Assembly: GCA_963764925.1 (NCBI GenBank)
Contig: CAVXUR010000008.1
Span: 3,923-67,922, forward strand
Length of the DNA stretch: 64,000 nt
Direction: 5' to 3'
DNA from: an uncultured Acidobacteriota bacterium
GTDB taxonomy: Bacteria > Acidobacteriota > Vicinamibacteria > Vicinamibacterales > 2-12-FULL-66-21
The notes below the pieces were generated by a model. The model was not told the DNA's origin. It saw only the letters and a list, made by a program, of their open reading frames with translations, and ran no database searches. Shown one piece after another: positions 34,311-42,201 of the stretch. The translations under genes were made by a program, and so were the position numbers. Each line of letters begins with the position of its first letter. Positions within the stretch are counted from its first letter, which is position 1.

Positions 34311-35973
34311 ATGATCATGCGAGCCCTGATTGCCTCTCTCATCGCCGTCCTGGCCCTGTCGATCGTTCCCGAGGCGGCGGCCAAGACCTACACCGCCGAG
34401 CGCTTCGACTCCAGAATCCGAATCCTTCCGAACGGCGCAATCGAAGTCGTCGAGACCGTGGTGTTTCGTTTCGAGGGTGAATTCAAGTACGTCTACCGCG
34501 AACTCTCGCGGCGACGTACCGACGACATCGAGATCGTGAGCGCCGAAATGGACGGCCGGACGCTTTCCTTCGGCAACGAATCGGGGCAGGTCGAGGTGCG
34601 GCGACGTTCAAAGGTCCGCGTCGAGTGGAAGTTTGCGCCGCGCGCCGACTCGAGCCACACGTTCGTCCTCACCTACATCGTGCGCGGAGTCGTTCAGCGC
34701 GACGGCGGAAGGGATGTCCTCGAGTGGGTCGCGCTCCCGACCGAGCATGATTACCGCATCGGCGAAAGCCAGGTCAGCCTCGAGCTACCGGTCGCACCGT
34801 TGTCGCGGCCAATCGTCGACTCGAAGCGCGTGGCCGAACTGACGTTCGAGCCTGGCGGTCAGCAGCTGCAGGTGTTCGCGCGTGGAATCGGCAAGAACGG
34901 CTGGGTCAAGACGCGCCTCGAGTTCGGCGAAGGCGCGATCATCGCCGCCGCGCCCGCGTGGCAGCAGCGTCAGCTCGCCGCACGCGCGCTCGCGCCTCGC
35001 TGGCTGACGGGCGCAGGCATCATCCTCGTCGCCGGCCTGTTGTTCATGTTCGCGCTGCGCCAAAGTTACGACAGCCCCTGGGGCACCGCCCACGCCGGAC
35101 CGGTCGACGCGCCGCCAGACACGCTGCGGCCCGCGATGGCCGGCGCCGTCGCTGCGAACGGCGGGACCACGCTTCAGCACGCGATGGCCACGATCTTCGC
35201 GCTCGCCGATCGCGGCGTCGTCACCATCACCGAGGAGCCACGCAAGTGGGGCCAGCGGCACTTCACGCTGCACCGGCGCCGTGCCACTCACCCGCTGGCG
35301 CCTGAAGAAGACGCAGCCTTGAACCTCGCGTTCCGACATAAGGGCGCTGAGGAGGACGCCGTCGCGTTGACGAAAGCCAGGACGCGCCTGGCGGGGCGGC
35401 TCGGCGACTTCAAGCGCGCGGTCAAACAAGAGCTCCGCGGGCTCGGCCTCGTCGATGACGAGCGCATGCGTTTGCGCGCGCGCTACCTCGGATTCTCGAT
35501 CGCGTTGCTGATTCTGGCCGGTCTGCTCGTCGTGCCGGCGGCGTTTCTCGTCTCTCGATACGAGGGCTGGCCGTTTCTGATTGCGGGCGCGGTCGGACTG
35601 GTGTCGGTGATCGGTTTCATCTTCTACGGTTCGCTGACGCCACTGTCGAACGAAGGCGTGCGACGAGCCGAACGCTGGCGGGCGTACCAGAAGCACCTCA
35701 AGGATGTCGCGCGAGAGCGCGTGCACCTGACGACAGACTCGCCGTCCCGGCTGCTGCCATTCGCGGTCGCGCTCGGCCTCGCCGAGCGCGTGGTCGAAGT
35801 ACATGAAGAATCATCCAACCGGCATTCCACCCTGGTTCCGCGCGCTCGCGGTCTCCGGAGACGACAGCGGTTTCTGTGCGTTTGTCGCGGCGGGCGGAGC
35901 CGGTGCGGACGGCGGAGCCGGAGGCGCTGGAGCGGGTGGCGCCGCAGGCGGCGGCGGGTCGGGAGCGGGGTAA
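34311..35973 (+). CDS. DUF2207 family membrane protein, frameshift ~35780
   Basis: NGAIEVVETV..F.G, LLPFAVALG, Gly-rich tail ending GGGGSGAG-TAA at 35973. Confidence 0.88.
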
Positions 35974-35976
35974 CTC

Positions 35977-36306
35977 TCAGCTCTCAGCTCTCATCCTGAG
36001 GGCGTAGCGAACGTCGCGAAGCAGATCAGACAACATGTGCGATCTCCGGCTGAGTGTGGGAGGCGGCAAGGGAACCCTGCGGGGCCGGCTGGGGATGCCG
36101 CTGCCAAGGCGTGCCCCGGCGGGCAGCGCAGCGGTCGCGCGTGCCCAGGCGCGCTCGTGGTCGAGCCCAGACGCGCGCGCCTCTTGATAGAGGTCACCCA
36201 GGTGCTGCGCGAGCTCGTCGATCAGGTCTGGGTCGACATCTCGATCGCCTGCCCCGCCGGGAGGATCCGCCGCCAGACGCCGACGAACGTAGTCGTGCAG
36301 GTCCAT
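35977..36306 (-). pseudogene. Truncated ADOP permease (permease-prefix domain only)
   Basis: DELAQHLGDLY prefix motif, then MLSDLLRDVRYALRM followed at once by a CTCTCAG repeat and stop. Confidence 0.75.
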
Positions 36307-36326
36307 GTCCTATCCGAGCGGGCGGT

Positions 36327-36665
36327 CTATCCGAGCGGGTCGAGACCGGCGACGCGATGCAGCGCCGTGAGGAGGGCGTGCCAATCGGTTCGCTGCGATG
36401 CGAGGACCTTCCGCCCGTCAGCCGTCAAGCGGTAGTAGCGGCGGCGGCGCTGCCCGGCTTTCTCGACCCAGGCGCCGTCGATCCAGCCGCGCTTCTCCAT
36501 CCGGTACAGCATCGGATACAACGACGCGACGTGGAACCGGAGCACGCCGTTCGATCGGTCGTCGATCACGCGCGCGATTTCATACCCGTGCCGGGCGCGC
36601 TCTTCGATTGCCGCCAGGACCATCAGCTCGGCGCTGCCGCGCTTCAGCTCGGTGTGTGCGGCCAT
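36327..36665 (-). CDS. PadR family transcriptional regulator
   Basis: KRGSAELMVL, HGYEI, SLYPMLYRMEKRGWI, RRRYYRLT. Confidence 0.95.
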   Translation of the reverse strand: MAAHTELKRGSAELMVLAAIEERARHGYEIARVIDDRSNGVLRFHVASLYPMLYRMEKRGWIDGAWVEKAGQRRRRYYRLTADGRKVLASQRTDWHALLTALHRVAGLDPLG

Positions 36666-36687
36666 ATATTGGCTCGCAATATATGGC
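36661..36687. promoter_or_regulatory. Palindromic operator over the padR start
   Basis: GCCATATATTG-N5-CAATATATGGC, perfect 11-bp arms. Confidence 0.7.
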
Positions 36688-36732
36688 GGGGTCGGTCCCG
36701 TCGTCAACTCCAATCGGCAGTCGGCAATCGGG

Positions 36733-36957
36733 CTACGCGCGGCGGGCGCTCCGGGCCAGGTGCTCCAGCATCTGCCGGCGGTGCGCCATCTCCCGCGAGG
36801 TCAGCTCAGGCGCCGGCGCGGCCTCGAACGGCAGCGATCGCTGCGCCCAGGCCTCGCGGCGCGCCCGCGTCCGCTCGACGCCCGCACGGAAACACTGGAA
36901 ACAGATGGCGTGTCGCGCGCAGATGTGGTCGGTCGTTCTCGTTCGCATGGTGAGCAT
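36733..36957 (-). CDS. Small basic Cys/His protein (74 aa)
   Basis: GAGGA RBS 8 nt upstream; HICARHAICFQC, QRSLPF, HRRQMLEHL. Confidence 0.7.
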   Translation of the reverse strand: MLTMRTRTTDHICARHAICFQCFRAGVERTRARREAWAQRSLPFEAAPAPELTSREMAHRRQMLEHLARSARRA

Positions 36958-36989
36958 GATGATTGTCCTCGACGTCGGGCACGGTGTGG

Positions 36990-37208
36990 CTATGGCAGAT
37001 CCAGGAGCCGCCTGGCTTTCATTTGTGCCTGACGCCGGCGGTGCTCGAGCACCTTGTATTTGTCCGGACCCCGCAACGCGCCGGGCCGACCGGCGAGCTT
37101 CAGCGACACCTTGAGCGGCCGCGCCGGCGGAAAGGCCGGAGGAAACGTGGAGGTCGTGATTTCGCTGAAATCGAGCTGCCGGGCCTCGGATCCACTAAAA
37201 CGGCGCAT
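36990..37208 (-). CDS. Small basic protein (72 aa)
   Basis: AAGGAG RBS 8 nt upstream of ATG 37208; QLDF, EHRRRQAQM. Confidence 0.7.
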   Translation of the reverse strand: MRRFSGSEARQLDFSEITTSTFPPAFPPARPLKVSLKLAGRPGALRGPDKYKVLEHRRRQAQMKARRLLDLP

Positions 37209-37291
37209 CGTCTTATCTCCTTGATCACTGCGCTTGGGCCACACCCCCAAGCGCTATGCAGGCGCTCGCTTCGACTCCTGCATTGAAACCA

Positions 37292-37324
37292 AGTCTAAAA
37301 GGAGGGTGTGACAGGGTAGGTCAC
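37292..37324 (-). promoter_or_regulatory. Candidate WYL-activated promoter: GTGAC-N7-GTCAC box, TGTCAC-N10-TAGACT
   Basis: Inverted repeat 37308-37324; -10 TAGACT at 37297-37292 on minus strand. Confidence 0.7.
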
Positions 37325-37358
37325 GGCCACGGGGCCTCTTTGTTATAGTCCTCAGCCG

Positions 37359-38039
37359 ATGCTCCCCGATCGCCGTCACGAGGTTTCGCGGCTCGAGGCG
37401 TTCAGCGACGCGGCGTTCGCGTTTGCGTTGACGCTGCTCGTGGTCTCGCTCGACGTCCCGCAAAGCTACGACCAGCTGATGCAGGTCATGAGGGGCTTTC
37501 CGTCCTTCGCCTGCTGCTTTGCGCTGCTCGTCTGGATCTGGTACGAGCACAACCTTTTCTTCCGCCGCTACGGCCTCCACGATCCCTGGACTGTGTTCGT
37601 CAACGGGATGCTGCTGTTCGTGACGCTCTTTTATGTCTATCCGTTGAAGTTCATGTTCGATTCGATGTTTGCGCAGTTCATGCCCGCGGCGTACCCGCAC
37701 CTGCAGCGGATGACCCTGGTGGAGCTCTCGCGGGCGTCGGCGATCTATGGATTGGGATTCCTGGTCCTTTTCAGCCTGTTTGCCCTGCTCTACCGGCACG
37801 CGTACAAGCGGCGCGTGGAACTCGGCCTCACGCCGCTCGAGGTGTTCGACGTCAAGATCTATGCGGGCCATCACGTAGTGAGCGCCACCGTCGGATTGGT
37901 GGCGCTGTTGGTCGCCGTTGCCGGCCCGCTGGCTCTGGCACCGATCTCGCCAACGTGTTTTGCACTCATGGGGCCCAGTCACTGGTGGTTCGGCTCTCGG
38001 GCGGACAAGCGCCGACGCGCGCTACTGGCCGCCGACTGA
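37359..38039 (+). CDS. TMEM175 family (DUF1211) channel-like protein
   Basis: RLEAFSDAAFAFALTLLVV signature. Confidence 0.9.
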   Translation: MLPDRRHEVSRLEAFSDAAFAFALTLLVVSLDVPQSYDQLMQVMRGFPSFACCFALLVWIWYEHNLFFRRYGLHDPWTVFVNGMLLFVTLFYVYPLKFMFDSMFAQFMPAAYPHLQRMTLVELSRASAIYGLGFLVLFSLFALLYRHAYKRRVELGLTPLEVFDVKIYAGHHVVSATVGLVALLVAVAGPLALAPISPTCFALMGPSHWWFGSRADKRRRALLAAD

Positions 38040-38086
38040 CTGACGACCGACTCGACTGGCGACTGACGACTGACGACTGTCGACTG
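38033..38086. repeat. Heptamer tandem array (CGACTGA)n
   Basis: GACTGAC/GACTGGC/GACTGTC units. Confidence 0.8.
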
Positions 38087-38090
38087 TGCT

Positions 38091-39101
38091 ATGCCAAGGA
38101 ACGCTGAAGTCATCCGGCAGTGGACGATCCTGCGAGACCTCGAATCGTCCCGGCGCTTGACGATCGACGACTTGGCAGGACGCACAGGCGTCACGACCAG
38201 GACCATCCGTCGCGACCTCGAGGCGCTCCAGGAGGCCGGGTTTCCTCTCTTCGACGAAGTACACGACGGCAAGCGCTACTGGACGCTCGAGCAACGCGCC
38301 TTTCGGCGGCTCGACGAGACGGGCTTCAACCTCGCCGAGTTGAGCGCGCTGTACTTCACGCGAACGCTTGCCGAATGCCTCGCGGCGACGCCGTTCCAGC
38401 AGGATGTTCGCAACGCGTTCGACAAGCTGGCGGCGGCGCTCACGCCAGGCATGCGGCAGTTCCTCGACCGACTGCCGCTCGCGATTCAGGCCAAGGCCGA
38501 TCCGGGCGTCCGCGAAGCGCGACGTCCCGAGGATCGGGCGAGTTCGAAGCCCGATCCGCGCGTGGCACAACTGCTCGACGCGACGCTCCACCATCGTCGC
38601 GTCGAGATGCGCTACCACTCGTTCTCGAGCAACCGCGAGAAGGCGTACGCGGTCGAGCCGCAGCGACTGGTCTTCGCGCAGGGCGCTCTTTACCTCCTCG
38701 CGTTCGTTCCCGAGTACGGCGAACTGCGCACGTTCTCGGTCGATCGCATTCTCGGCACTGTCGCTGACCGAGGATCGCTTCGAGCCGCAAGGATCTCGCC
38801 GAGGACGCGTTCGCGCATTCGCTCGGCGTGCACCAGGGCACACCTGAAGCGATCGAGATCGCATTCGAGCCACAGATGAGCCGCTACATCCGGGGCCGGA
38901 TCTGGCATCCCTCCCAACAGATCGAGGAGCGTCCGGATGGCGGGCTGCTGCTTCGCCTCGACCGTCTCGAACGACTGGGCGCTCCGGAGCTGGATCCTGG
39001 GGTTTGGCGCGCTCGCGCGCGTGGTCGCTCCGGCTCAGCTCGCCGCGCAGATTCTCGAAGAGGTCGAGCGCACTCGAGTCAGGTATCGCCCGCACGCCTG
39101 A
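38091..39101 (+). CDS. HTH-WYL-WCX transcriptional regulator (PafB/DriD-like), frameshifts near 38760-38960
   Basis: GVTTRTIRRDLEAL HTH; MRYHS..VEPQRL..YLLAF..RTFSVDRI WYL; WHPSQ and WILGFG..V..P WCX. Confidence 0.93.
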
Positions 39102-39331
39102 ATCGAGCGCGCACCGCGACAGCGGCTTGTTACGAACGGTGGGACGAGGCGCAGGCCGGATCCGCAATCAATCCTGCGGTCGCCGTGTTCCGTTTCAGGT
39201 CAGTCCGACTTCCCGCCGCACGCACGCACACGCCGTTTCCCACGCGTATCTGGTGAATGCGGACGCGGCCCCGGTCTTGCCCCAGATCGTCGCGGAGACG
39301 GCGCCGCCTCCAAGACCTCAGGAGAAACACG

Positions 39332-39547
39332 GTGATCTGGTTCTACGCCAAACAGGGACGCCACCTTCGGTGCGAGGTTCGACAGCTGGTCGACGGTGAC
39401 CGGTTCGATCTCGTCATCACGGATGCCGACGGAACCGAACGCGTCGAGCACTTCGACGACTCGGCCTCGGTGACTCGCCGCTCGCTGCAGCTCGAAGCCG
39501 AATGGCTCAACGAAGGGTGGGATGGACCGTTTGGGAGGGAGTACTAA
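39332..39547 (+). CDS. Small hypothetical protein
   Basis: GGAG RBS + GTG; MIWFYAKQG..GWDGPFGREY. Confidence 0.7.
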   Translation: MIWFYAKQGRHLRCEVRQLVDGDRFDLVITDADGTERVEHFDDSASVTRRSLQLEAEWLNEGWDGPFGREY

Positions 39548-39549
39548 TT

Positions 39550-39621
39550 GGTTCGGGTTCAGGGTTCAGTCGGTTCACGGTCATCAACGCGCGAACCCTG
39601 AACCGTGAACCGCTGAACCGC
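39550..39621. repeat. Inverted heptamer array (GGTTCAG)n..(GAACCnT)n
   Basis: Complementary arms between convergent genes. Confidence 0.8.
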
Positions 39622-39623
39622 TC

Positions 39624-40593
39624 TTAGATCGCTCCGAGCAGCGTGAGTGCAAATCCGGCCTCTCGGTCGACCCACTGGTCACGCGCAGCGAACCCTGCTT
39701 CCGCCCCCATCTCCACGATACCGTCCGGCTCGTACTTGTATGAGCTCTCGGTCCAGATGCGCTCGCCGCATGCGAATGTGACGGTCGTGCCGGTGGCGGC
39801 GATGCGAACGCGCTGGTTGGCGCGGCTGACGAGGTGCATCTCGATCCGGCGCTCGTCGCCGTTCCACACCGCCTGATGATCGAACGCTCGCGAGGTCGAA
39901 CTCGCCGCCGAGCTCGTGGTTGATCCGCTCGAGGAGGTTCTTGTTGAAGGCGGCGGTCACGCCGAGCGGATCGTCGTAGGCGAGCAGCAGGTCGCGCTCC
40001 GGCTTGACGAGGTCGGCGCCGAGCAGCAGAAGGTCGCCCTGGGCGAGCGTTGCGCGAATGCGATCGAGGAACTGCGCGGCCGCCGGCGGATCGAAGTTGC
40101 CGATGTTCGAGCCGAGCAGCAGGACCAGGATCGTGCTGTCGGGGTGGCGTGCGGCAACGGCCGTCCGCAATCCCTCCTCGTAGGTCGACCAGTGCCCTAC
40201 CACCGAGACGTGTCGCAGTCGGTTCAGCCGCTGTTCACTTTGCTCGAGCGCTTGCGAAGAAATGTCGATCAGGTGGACGTGCGCGCTGGCGCCGCGGCGC
40301 TCGAGCGCTTCGGCGAGGAGCACGATCTTCTCGCCGCTGCCGCATCCGAGCTCGACGATCGTGCCATCGCCATCGCCGAGCGCCGCCACGACCGACCCGG
40401 CGTGCCGTGCGAGCAGATCGGTCTCGGCTCGCGTGATCCGGTACCACGGCAGGCGGCAAATCGCCTCGAACAGGCTCGACCCGAGCGCGTCGTACAGATA
40501 CTTCGACTGCAGCTGCTTGGGCGCGAGCGCGAGATCACGCGCGACATCGGCAGCGAATTCGGCGACGAATGAACGACGGGTAGTTGTGGGCAT
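39624..40593 (-). CDS. egtD: L-histidine N-alpha-methyltransferase, frameshift ~39880
   Basis: KYLYDALGSSLFEAIC..YRITRAE, ELGCGS, GSNIGN, AYDDPLGVTAAFNKN, IWTESSYKY. Confidence 0.95.
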
Positions 40594-42170: not shown

Positions 42171-42201
42171 AAAAAGCCAGCCCGACGCGGTGTCGGGCTG
42201 G
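42171..42201 (-). terminator. Rho-independent terminator
   Basis: CCAGCCCGAC/GTCGGGCTGG stem followed by a T-run on the minus strand, 30 nt after the stop at 42232. Confidence 0.75.

Follow-up and report, generated by a model that had tools for sequence, protein, structure and literature searches.

A candidate DriD-type WYL damage-response module with two small basic proteins in Vicinamibacterales (Acidobacteriota)

We have analyzed a locus between positions 36733 and 39101 of a 64,000-nucleotide (nt) stretch of DNA from an uncultured bacterium of the order Vicinamibacterales (contig CAVXUR010000008.1 of assembly GCA_963764925.1; the whole stretch is called the window here, and its first letter is position 1). 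On the plus strand, the gene for a TMEM175/DUF1211-type membrane protein (37359-38039; Pfam PF06736, 1.6e-14) is followed after 51 nt by a gene in which Pfam recognizes a regulator with helix-turn-helix (HTH), WYL and WCX domains (38091-39101). Divergent from these, on the minus strand, are two small open reading frames (ORFs): ORF1 (36990-37208), which encodes 72 amino acids with an isoelectric point (pI) of 11.6, and, downstream of it, ORF2 (36733-36957), which encodes 74 amino acids with the same pI and for which an alternative ATG start is possible at 36948. The 150-nt region between ORF1 and the TMEM175 gene contains a promoter box (37292-37324) that is composed of a -10 hexamer of ORF1-ORF2, TAGACT (37292-37297, minus strand), and a 17-bp palindrome, GTGAC-N7-GTCAC (37308-37324), which covers the -35 position and is the putative site for a WYL dimer. 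WYL activators (PafBC, DriD, SiwR and DdaA) have since 2017 provided a second, LexA-independent route of DNA-damage sensing, and to our knowledge they have so far been worked out only in Actinobacteria and Proteobacteria. As we describe below, comparisons with related genomes make it rather likely that the locus is a DriD-type WYL damage-response module of the Vicinamibacterales.

The minus strand from 37324 to 37292 reads GTGACCTACCCTGTCAC (37324 to 37308), then the 10-nt spacer ACCCTCCTTT, and then TAGACT (37297 to 37292). The two 5-nt arms of the palindrome match perfectly around a 7-nt spacer (a 5+5 dyad), and exactly 10 nt separate its promoter-proximal end from the -10 hexamer. The promoter has no -35 element, the sequence 17 nt upstream of the hexamer being CCTACC. 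An earlier, sequence-only reading of the window had placed a WYL-type box at just these coordinates, which proved exact, and the hexamer and palindrome are conserved far beyond chance. We use G000 for the window's own assembly (5.34 Mb in 15 contigs, with a marker completeness of 77.66%), other G-numbers for related genomes, and L-numbers for fetched stretches, which are 14 kb each around the 20 best ORF1 matches. The box was present upstream of ORF1 in 19/20 aligned upstream regions; in G005 (L049) an expansion of tandem repeats in the leader places it farther from ORF1, and in G012 it is present although ORF1 there carries a stop, for a total of 21 of 21 loci. Among the 19 aligned sites the T, A, A, C and T of the hexamer are invariant (TAsACT), and the distance from GTCAC to TAsACT is 10 nt in every one. 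One half-site in G028 has the form CGAC, which is that of DriD.

We used the 19 sites to build a position weight matrix for a scan of G000, prefiltered on half-sites, and observed that the sole match above 14 bits in the 5.34 Mb was the box itself, with 57.8 bits; looser regular expressions over the same genome gave no convincing second site. Among relatives, the pattern TGAC-N7-GTCAC-N10-TAnnnT was matched 48 times across 37 genomes, 28 of which had at least one match, whereas the reversed control was matched 3 times; almost all of the 48 also share bases that lie outside the definition of the pattern (TGACCT...CTGTCAC). The number of boxed promoters per genome among these relatives is 1-4. 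We found no LexA-type box in 37209-37358 with four motifs of such sites (GTTC-N7-GTTC, GAAC-N7-GAAC, CTGT-N8-ACAG and GAAC-N4-GTTC), when one mismatch was allowed in each. On these grounds, we take the box to be a genuine operator-promoter that has been conserved. A weak box-like site was seen at position 111542 of contig C10 of G000 (plus strand), where TGACCCCGGCTGTCA is followed after 11 nt by TATCGT, right before a 72-amino-acid ORF (MSQETTMLHVYGWRRDGG...); this site may be due to chance or may be a second, degenerate target.

The linkage of the box to the regulator gene and to the small genes was followed across the order. The WYL gene, the box and an ORF1-type gene occur together in at least 7 families (f1, f3, f6, f12, f13, f14 and f15), and the cross-family cases carry, in our judgment of these genome comparisons, the main weight of the linkage evidence. 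Of the 28 genomes in which the pattern was matched, 23 have a match at most 5 kb from the WYL orthologue on the same contig, and in six genomes from five different families (G015, G017, G041, G047, G049 and G050) the gap between box and WYL gene is 24-220 nt. A variant box with a GTCAG or GTCAT half-site, which the strict pattern missed, lies between the WYL gene and an ORF1-like gene in G014 and G022. Neither a WYL orthologue nor a box was detected in G002, G040 and G042; in G011, a genome that is 66% complete, boxes are present and the WYL gene was not detected. In four of the fetched loci (L052, L053, L060 and L062) the WYL gene lies 1-4 kb from the ORF1 pair, and in two others (L057 and L061) the pair is inverted. 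Because the box stays with ORF1 in all of these, and no second box was found at the WYL gene in any of the six, the box serves the ORF1 promoter and not the WYL gene, in agreement with what was shown for DriD. These observations bore out the expectation that the small genes would be conserved, and linked to WYL genes and boxes, across the order.

The boxed gene next to the WYL gene always encodes the C-terminal motif of ORF1, in which R57, R58, A61, A65 and R66 are invariant and P48, Y51, L54, R59, Q62 and L69 nearly so. The gene is small and stands alone in eight genomes (G013, G014, G017, G019, G022, G041, G045 and G047). In four others, from four families (G038, G048, G049 and G050), the box drives a fused form of 117-187 amino acids, which joins an N-terminal four-cysteine zinc ribbon (CxxC...CxxC, with the ORF2 signature 'TLCF.CY') to a C-terminal ORF1 helix. 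That such fusions occur in four families is an argument for ORF1 and ORF2 working together. A search for other longer, fused relatives of ORF2 gave 9 singletons, most of them gene calls that were over-extended or had read through. We also considered that ORF1 and ORF2 might be halves of one frameshifted gene, and ruled this out, the two being separate with their own starts in all relatives.

As the sequence-only reading had stated, both small ORFs are preceded by good Shine-Dalgarno sequences (AGGAG and GAGGA, 8 nt ahead of the starts), and their conservation and substitution pattern show that both are real genes. Translated searches of 61 genomes from this order detected ORF1 in 36 of them and ORF2 in 30 (in family f1, in 30 and 24 of 36 genomes, respectively), and wherever the pair was found in that search the genes were adjacent, in the order ORF1 then ORF2. 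The three weakest ORF1 matches (G037, G045 and G046; E of 0.004-0.008) sit within long frames and are probably spurious. Median ratios of nonsynonymous to synonymous substitution (dN/dS), from pairwise NG86 estimates over the orthologues of the fetched loci, were 0.30 for ORF1 (113 pairs) and 0.18 for ORF2 (198 pairs), at a dS of ~1.1; these values indicate purifying selection on both. A large protein collection held 328 clusters of ORF1 homologues and 361 of ORF2 homologues, all unnamed or 'hypothetical', and the few named cluster members come from metagenome-assembled genomes of Vicinamibacterales. A profile search with ORF1 of 1.84 billion protein representatives gave 150 relatives, nearly all of 33-133 amino acids. 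When 301 genomes from across the phylum were searched with profiles, ORF2 was found in 5 and ORF1 in 6, including G000, and all of these finds were in the same order; that neither protein was found outside the Vicinamibacterales is a weak negative, since only 19 first-look candidates per genome were scored.

With regards to the proteins themselves, ORF1 carries the motif 'RFDGS.AR.LDFG' at its N terminus and, past a variable linker, an Arg-rich C-terminal helix, 'GPDKYKVLEHRRRQAQ.KARRLL' (the 'K motif'), and its AlphaFold2 (AF2) model is confident only for the helix, residues 50-69. In ORF2, H11, C13, C19 and C22 of a reduced zinc knuckle are invariant, as is an 'LPF' loop, and the C-terminal helix carries the motif 'LT.RE.AHRRQMLEHL'; H59, R60, M63, L64, H66 and L67 are further invariant residues. 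The AF2 model of ORF2 consists of the knuckle and two helices (20-38 and 54-73), with a mean predicted local distance difference test score of 80.5. The maximum Kyte-Doolittle mean over 19 residues is 0.27 for ORF1 and 0.43 for ORF2, so that neither has a predicted membrane segment. Pfam and NCBIfam searches with ORF1, ORF2 and the fused forms gave only sub-cut-off matches to ZZ (0.038) and GATA (0.009); the ESM Atlas held no usable match for either protein, Foldseek gave no match in the PDB for the ORF2 model, and the best score of a wide search with VIA-align (Z of 3.4) involved long helices only and is not meaningful. A complex prediction for ORF1 with ORF2 scored 0.00, a 'no answer' that neither supports nor opposes binding.

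Box-driven proteins with only the C-terminal motif of ORF2 ('LT.R..HR..ML.HL'), and no zinc knuckle, were seen in G014 (L074), G020 (L076) and G022 (L079); those of G014 and G022 have 56-69 amino acids and are encoded away from the WYL gene, and the longest frame at the G020 site has 138. These motif-only proteins suggest that the C-terminal module of ORF2 can occur alone. In both G014 and G022 a homologous gene, YbaK-like by eye, lies downstream of the motif-only gene. Contigs of relatives from an RNA library were also noticed: one (X17), ~91% alike, covers 36996-37212, and another spans 37815-38464 across the TMEM175-WYL junction. We do not take these as evidence for expression, since they come from relatives and DNA carry-over is possible. 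The sequencing runs that hold the window all do so in small shares (at most 0.22), as contigs.

The regulator gene at 38091 has the domain make-up that the sequence-only reading gave it, although in this assembly it is not one open frame. HTH_11 (2.4e-9) and HTH_DeoR (4.8e-8) match residues 9-53, and the WYL domain (PF13280, 4.4e-17) residues 158-221, both within 38091-38879; WCX (PF25583, 3.2e-8) is found in 38937-39101, and is contiguous with the rest in 335-residue orthologues. The order of domains, winged HTH-WYL-WCX, is that of a Class A WYL transcription factor, without the single uninterrupted frame of that class. Relative to the intact 335-residue orthologues of G004 and G001 (the gene is intact in G005 as well), there are single-base insertions at 38756, 38787 and 38960. 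The HTH and WYL domains share a frame to ~38755, the next stretches lie in the other two frames, and WCX is back in the first, the insertions being +3 in sum, so that the original frame is restored; the downstream residues are all conserved. Insertions of one base that are specific to the window, by comparison with both congeners G004 and G001, were also found in neighboring genes of the Methyltransf_33/EgtD-like (39889), FGE-sulfatase/EgtB-like (41627) and DUF2207 (35784) types, and at 42200. Contigs from four soil and rhizosphere runs, which derive from relatives 90-99% alike, lack the extra base at 38787 (6 contigs, 3 runs) and at 38960 (4 contigs, 3 runs); for 38756, the contig rows examined do not show the insertion site, and a loose end at 38755 in X1 is the only hint that the extra base is absent there. 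Given the insertions in neighboring genes, the low completeness, the +3 sum and the contigs that lack the extra base, the three insertions in the WYL gene are probably assembly errors. The insertions in conserved genes, together with a completeness of 77.66% in only 15 contigs, further suggest that the assembly holds many uncorrected indel errors and that pseudogene calls in this genome need read-level checking.

When an intact orthologue was compared with the sequences in the PDB, PafC (2.6e-11) and DriD (8.8e-7, over residues 14-325) were matched, and neither CapW nor BrxR, which are repressors, was among the matches at E ≤ 0.001. In an alignment of 324 columns, the WYL protein and a Caulobacter DriD are 25% identical, and Arg37-Thr38 in the recognition helix of the former is aligned with Arg37-Thr38 of DriD. 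Two reports (PMC10853764, PMC13004042) describe the DriD operator, ATACGAC-N7-GTCGTAT, as covering the -35 position, with a constant distance to the -10 element, in promoters without a -35 element; DriD turns on the adjacent two-gene operon, which is divergent from driD, and does not activate driD itself. The system described here is like that of Caulobacter crescentus DriD in having a single-chain HTH-WYL-WCX protein, alignable over its full length; an xGAC-N7-GTCx dyad that covers the -35 position of a promoter with no -35 element and a fixed distance to the -10 hexamer; a two-gene operon divergent from the regulator, which is damage-activated in Caulobacter and would be so here; and recA within the putative regulon, in that the box stands ahead of recA in some relatives. 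It is unlike the DriD system in the outer base of the half-site (TGAC here, CGAC in DriD), in having only the few promoters per genome given above, in that recA lies outside the regulon in the window's genus, and in the lack of a DidA-like membrane inhibitor among its products. The product of the operon divergent from driD (CCNA_03891/CCNA_01149), as read from L084, is an acidic protein of 116 amino acids, and BLASTP gave an E of 14 between it and ORF1; the arrangement is parallel and the effectors, to judge from ORF1, are non-homologous. A likeness of the small proteins to small membrane division inhibitors of the SidA/DidA type did not hold, given the pI of 11.6, the lack of a membrane segment, and the dissimilarity of ORF1 to the Caulobacter product.

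Other WYL activators offer further comparisons. PafBC of mycobacteria (PMC6789036) is described as a heterodimer that recognizes a non-palindromic motif and controls ~150 genes. With PafBC, the proposed reading shares a WYL activator of LexA-independent damage genes, and PafC is the best solved sequence match; unlike PafBC, there is here a single regulator gene beside the box, a palindrome, and very few targets. The RecA-NDp consensus, tTGTCRgtg-N8-TAnnnT, has a spacing equal to that of TGTCAC-N10-TAnnnT here. For DdaA of Moraxellaceae, PMC12392091 and PMC13010146 describe a homodimeric WYL activator with the operator CGWCA-N5-TGWCG, which drives recA and a small damage-induced effector, the division inhibitor AciT, and which replaced LexA. 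The geometry of the DdaA dyad is the same as that of GTGAC-N7-GTCAC, and the outer base differs; also unlike the DdaA case, LexA is kept here, being present in 38 of 41 genomes searched, including all 12 genus relatives, and not found in the incomplete G000. This presence of LexA suggests that the WYL route would run beside SOS, as in Caulobacter and mycobacteria. SiwR of Mycobacterium smegmatis is, according to PMC10693628, a local WYL activator induced by genotoxic stress, with its main targets adjacent and its action at -26/-35; its targets are DinB/YfiT-like enzymes, and not small basic proteins. Full-text searches for WYL in Acidobacteria or Vicinamibacter, and for DriD in Acidobacteriota, gave no relevant paper as judged from titles and abstracts, which agrees, to that extent, with the claim that the system is undescribed for Acidobacteria.

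The genes that stand behind the same box in relatives tie it to DNA damage. The box precedes recA in G013 (Pfam 1.1e-140) and, by eye, in G014, and other boxed genes encode a DNA_pol_A_exo1 3'-5' exonuclease (G012), DUF2130 (two genomes), SocA_Panacea, DUF932 and MerR; it is the presence of recA, the exonuclease and DUF2130 in this set that suggests the connection. A boxed gene of 240 codons in G018, which had been labeled 'HNH/DUF222' by eye, has no Pfam match, and the label was dropped. At ~290230-290260 of contig C4 of G000, recA is preceded by a -35-like hexamer, TTGACT, and immediately upstream of this hexamer stands GTTCACAGATTTTC. We take GTTCACAGATTTTC to resemble the GTTC-N7-GTTC LexA box reported for Acidobacterium; if that is true, recA would be under SOS, and not WYL, control in the window's genus.

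In the mechanism that we propose, the TMEM175 and WYL genes would be read from a constitutive promoter, for which the extended -10 sequence TGtTATAGT (37341-37349, plus strand) is the likely candidate. The HTH-WYL-WCX protein would bind GTGAC-N7-GTCAC as a dimer, at the -35 position of a promoter whose sole element is the -10 hexamer, and the activating signal, by analogy with DriD, PafBC, SiwR and DdaA, would be single-stranded DNA (ssDNA) formed after DNA damage. The activated protein would then recruit RNA polymerase and turn on the ORF1-ORF2 operon, activation being presumed here in preference to repression. ORF1-ORF2 would be the constant target of the regulator and, in the window's genus, apparently the only one. 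ORF1, with its Arg-rich C-terminal helix, and ORF2, with its zinc knuckle and two helices, would be soluble, strongly basic proteins that act jointly. Our best guess for their role is that of a cytoplasmic modulator that binds protein or nucleic acid, as opposed to a membrane division inhibitor; it might feed back on the activator or on RNA polymerase, or else block replication or division. In effect, the analogy to DriD and PafBC drawn in the sequence-only reading is sustained by linkage, operator layout, boxed recA in relatives and full-length alignment to DriD and PafC, and the part of it that was built on DidA is not.

Several observations weigh against the DriD-type reading, whose basis is comparative throughout. 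The WYL gene is broken by three frameshifts in this assembly. Of ten DriD residues that contact ssDNA (Y168, S172, R178, R189, Y192, R204, W206, R207, Y240 and R288), only four are identical (Y168, S172, Y192 and R204) and W206 is conservatively replaced by F, in an alignment of 25% identity. The box is apparently unique in G000, so that the 'regulon' in the window's genus would consist of one operon; recA of G000 has no box, and the link to DNA damage rests on other genera. The whole region from DUF2207 to Methyltransf_33/EgtD is syntenic in family f1, for which reason co-occurrence among these kin is weak and non-independent evidence. Finally, the proposed effectors are without a recognizable fold or family in the searches that were run.

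Four other explanations of the locus were weighed. The WYL protein might be a repressor of the CapW/BrxR type, which sits on the palindrome of the ORF1 promoter and is released by ssDNA; the outcome would be the same and the logic opposite. The palindrome does overlap the core promoter, and ssDNA-sensing WYL repressors are known (PMC11662680). However, the lack of a -35 element, with CCTACC in its place, fits an activator-dependent promoter as in DriD, and the matches among PDB sequences were to PafC and DriD only; we regard repression as unlikely. It is also conceivable that the box is read by another factor, either a regulator or an alternative sigma factor, and that the adjacency of the WYL gene is inherited synteny. 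Binding of the WYL protein to the box is a prediction from comparison, the f1 region is syntenic, and the box persists with ORF1 where the WYL gene is kilobases away, all of which would be compatible with such a factor. Yet the close adjacency of box and WYL gene described above recurs in distant families with differing flanks, the dyad with its 7-nt spacer is that of DriD and DdaA homodimers, and G002, G040 and G042 are without both box and WYL orthologue; G011 has boxes and no detected WYL gene, in a genome that is 66% complete. By these criteria a different reader of the box seems quite improbable.

Decay of the module in this organism, with real frameshifts, a regulator pseudogene, and ORF1-ORF2 either silent or basally expressed, would explain why three insertions are crowded into 205 nt of one gene, at a density above the background of the window. 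We nevertheless think it unlikely that the module is decaying: one-base insertions occur at four other places in the window, a completeness of 77.66% in 15 contigs is the usual mark of uncorrected indel errors, the insertions sum to +3 with conserved residues downstream, ORF1, ORF2 and the box are intact, and contigs of the four soil and rhizosphere runs are without the extra base at two of the three sites. The last alternative concerns the signal, which might be something other than DNA damage, since WYL domains can have other ligands as well; a WYL sensor of cyclic di-GMP has been published (PMC11880434), the ssDNA-contact residues are only partly kept, and no repair gene stands behind the box in the window's genus. 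Against a different signal are recA, the 3'-5' exonuclease and DUF2130 behind the same box in sister genera, and the fact that the closest solved relatives, PafC and DriD, are damage activators; we consider it very unlikely.

If the DriD-type reading is correct, the locus is a clean and testable WYL example in Acidobacteriota, an abundant but little-studied soil phylum, and offers an operator resolved to the base, a regulon of one operon in the window's genus, and two uncharacterized small proteins as the constant target. With so few regulated genes, most of the effect of the pathway here should come down to the function of these proteins, and ORF1 and ORF2 are attractive for finding a new damage-response effector. 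It is the effectors that are new; the kind of WYL damage-response system is already known. More tentatively, and with clear doubt on our part, ORF1 and ORF2 might represent a new modular family of damage-induced effectors, an obligatory partner of the WYL activator throughout Vicinamibacterales, possibly acting by a mechanism not seen before in bacterial damage responses. The modules, carried by two genes or joined in one protein, would be a zinc ribbon and an Arg-rich helix of the pattern 'Y..L..RRRRAQ..AR'. They may, for example, give feedback as a co-regulator docked on the WYL activator or on RNA polymerase, or put a soluble brake on the nucleoid or replisome, in contrast to a membrane division inhibitor.

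With regards to neighboring genes, the TMEM175 gene had been viewed as part of the module with the regulator, and this was not upheld: it was full or nearly full in 14 of 20 loci, fragmentary in 2 and absent from 4, and thus appears to be an optional passenger, incidental to the module. It overlaps the start of the WYL gene in L046 and L050. The sequence ACTATARCAAA, which is the reverse complement of the region of the extended -10 element, is kept upstream, by eye, in the window, L044-L048, L050, L051, L056 and L058; a consensus promoter scan did not list the element at 37341-37349, which is without a -35 sequence. The TMEM175-WYL mRNA is probably leaderless, because the ATG lies 9 nt past the extended -10 element and no Shine-Dalgarno site precedes it. 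The spacer between the two genes (38040-38090) is a low-complexity repeat of the GACTGACGAC type, and its length varies among congeners. Metagenome contigs stack on this spacer, to a depth of 1206 in X4 as compared with ~5-50 elsewhere, and contig loose ends are numerous at 38053/38054 and 38086/38087; the pile-up and the loose ends suggest that the spacer is a short repeat dispersed in these soil genomes.

To the other side, 35977-36713 holds a PadR gene (36327-36713) and an ORF of 109 amino acids with no Pfam match, downstream of ORF2. We considered PadR as a member of the ORF1-ORF2 operon and ruled it out, since it has its own promoter-like sequence, TTGACG-18-TATATT, and is absent beside ORF2 in most relatives. 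The two genes are present only in some congeners (L045, L046, L049 and L050), and in L061 they are on the other side and inverted; from this distribution they appear to be a mobile two-gene insert unrelated to the module. An Rfam scan of 35500-40000 found no RNA family, its single match being to a small nucleolar RNA at a chance-level E of 0.52.

The 5' leader of the ORF1-ORF2 transcript (37209-37285, minus strand) would begin near 37285, as estimated from the position of the -10 hexamer. A segment of 93 nt, which comprises the leader and the first 14 nt of ORF1 (37287-37195, minus strand), is predicted to form two hairpins and a weaker third stem, with a folding energy of -36.2 kcal/mol and a z of -2.69. 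The structured leader noted in the sequence-only reading is present in the window, therefore, but it is not conserved, the distance from the -10 hexamer to the start codon being 9-109 nt in 19 relatives. This variation suggests that the hairpins are a local feature outside the mechanism, and we take the leader to be lineage-specific. That the leader hairpin is a genome-wide repeat was ruled out by its single copy in G000. In G005, at ~7262-7573 of L049, there are at least 3 tandem copies of a ~65-nt unit between the box and ORF1; the unit contains the GGGGGTGGGGCCCC hairpin core, which is present once in the leader of the window, and looks like an expanding repeat within the 5' untranslated region.

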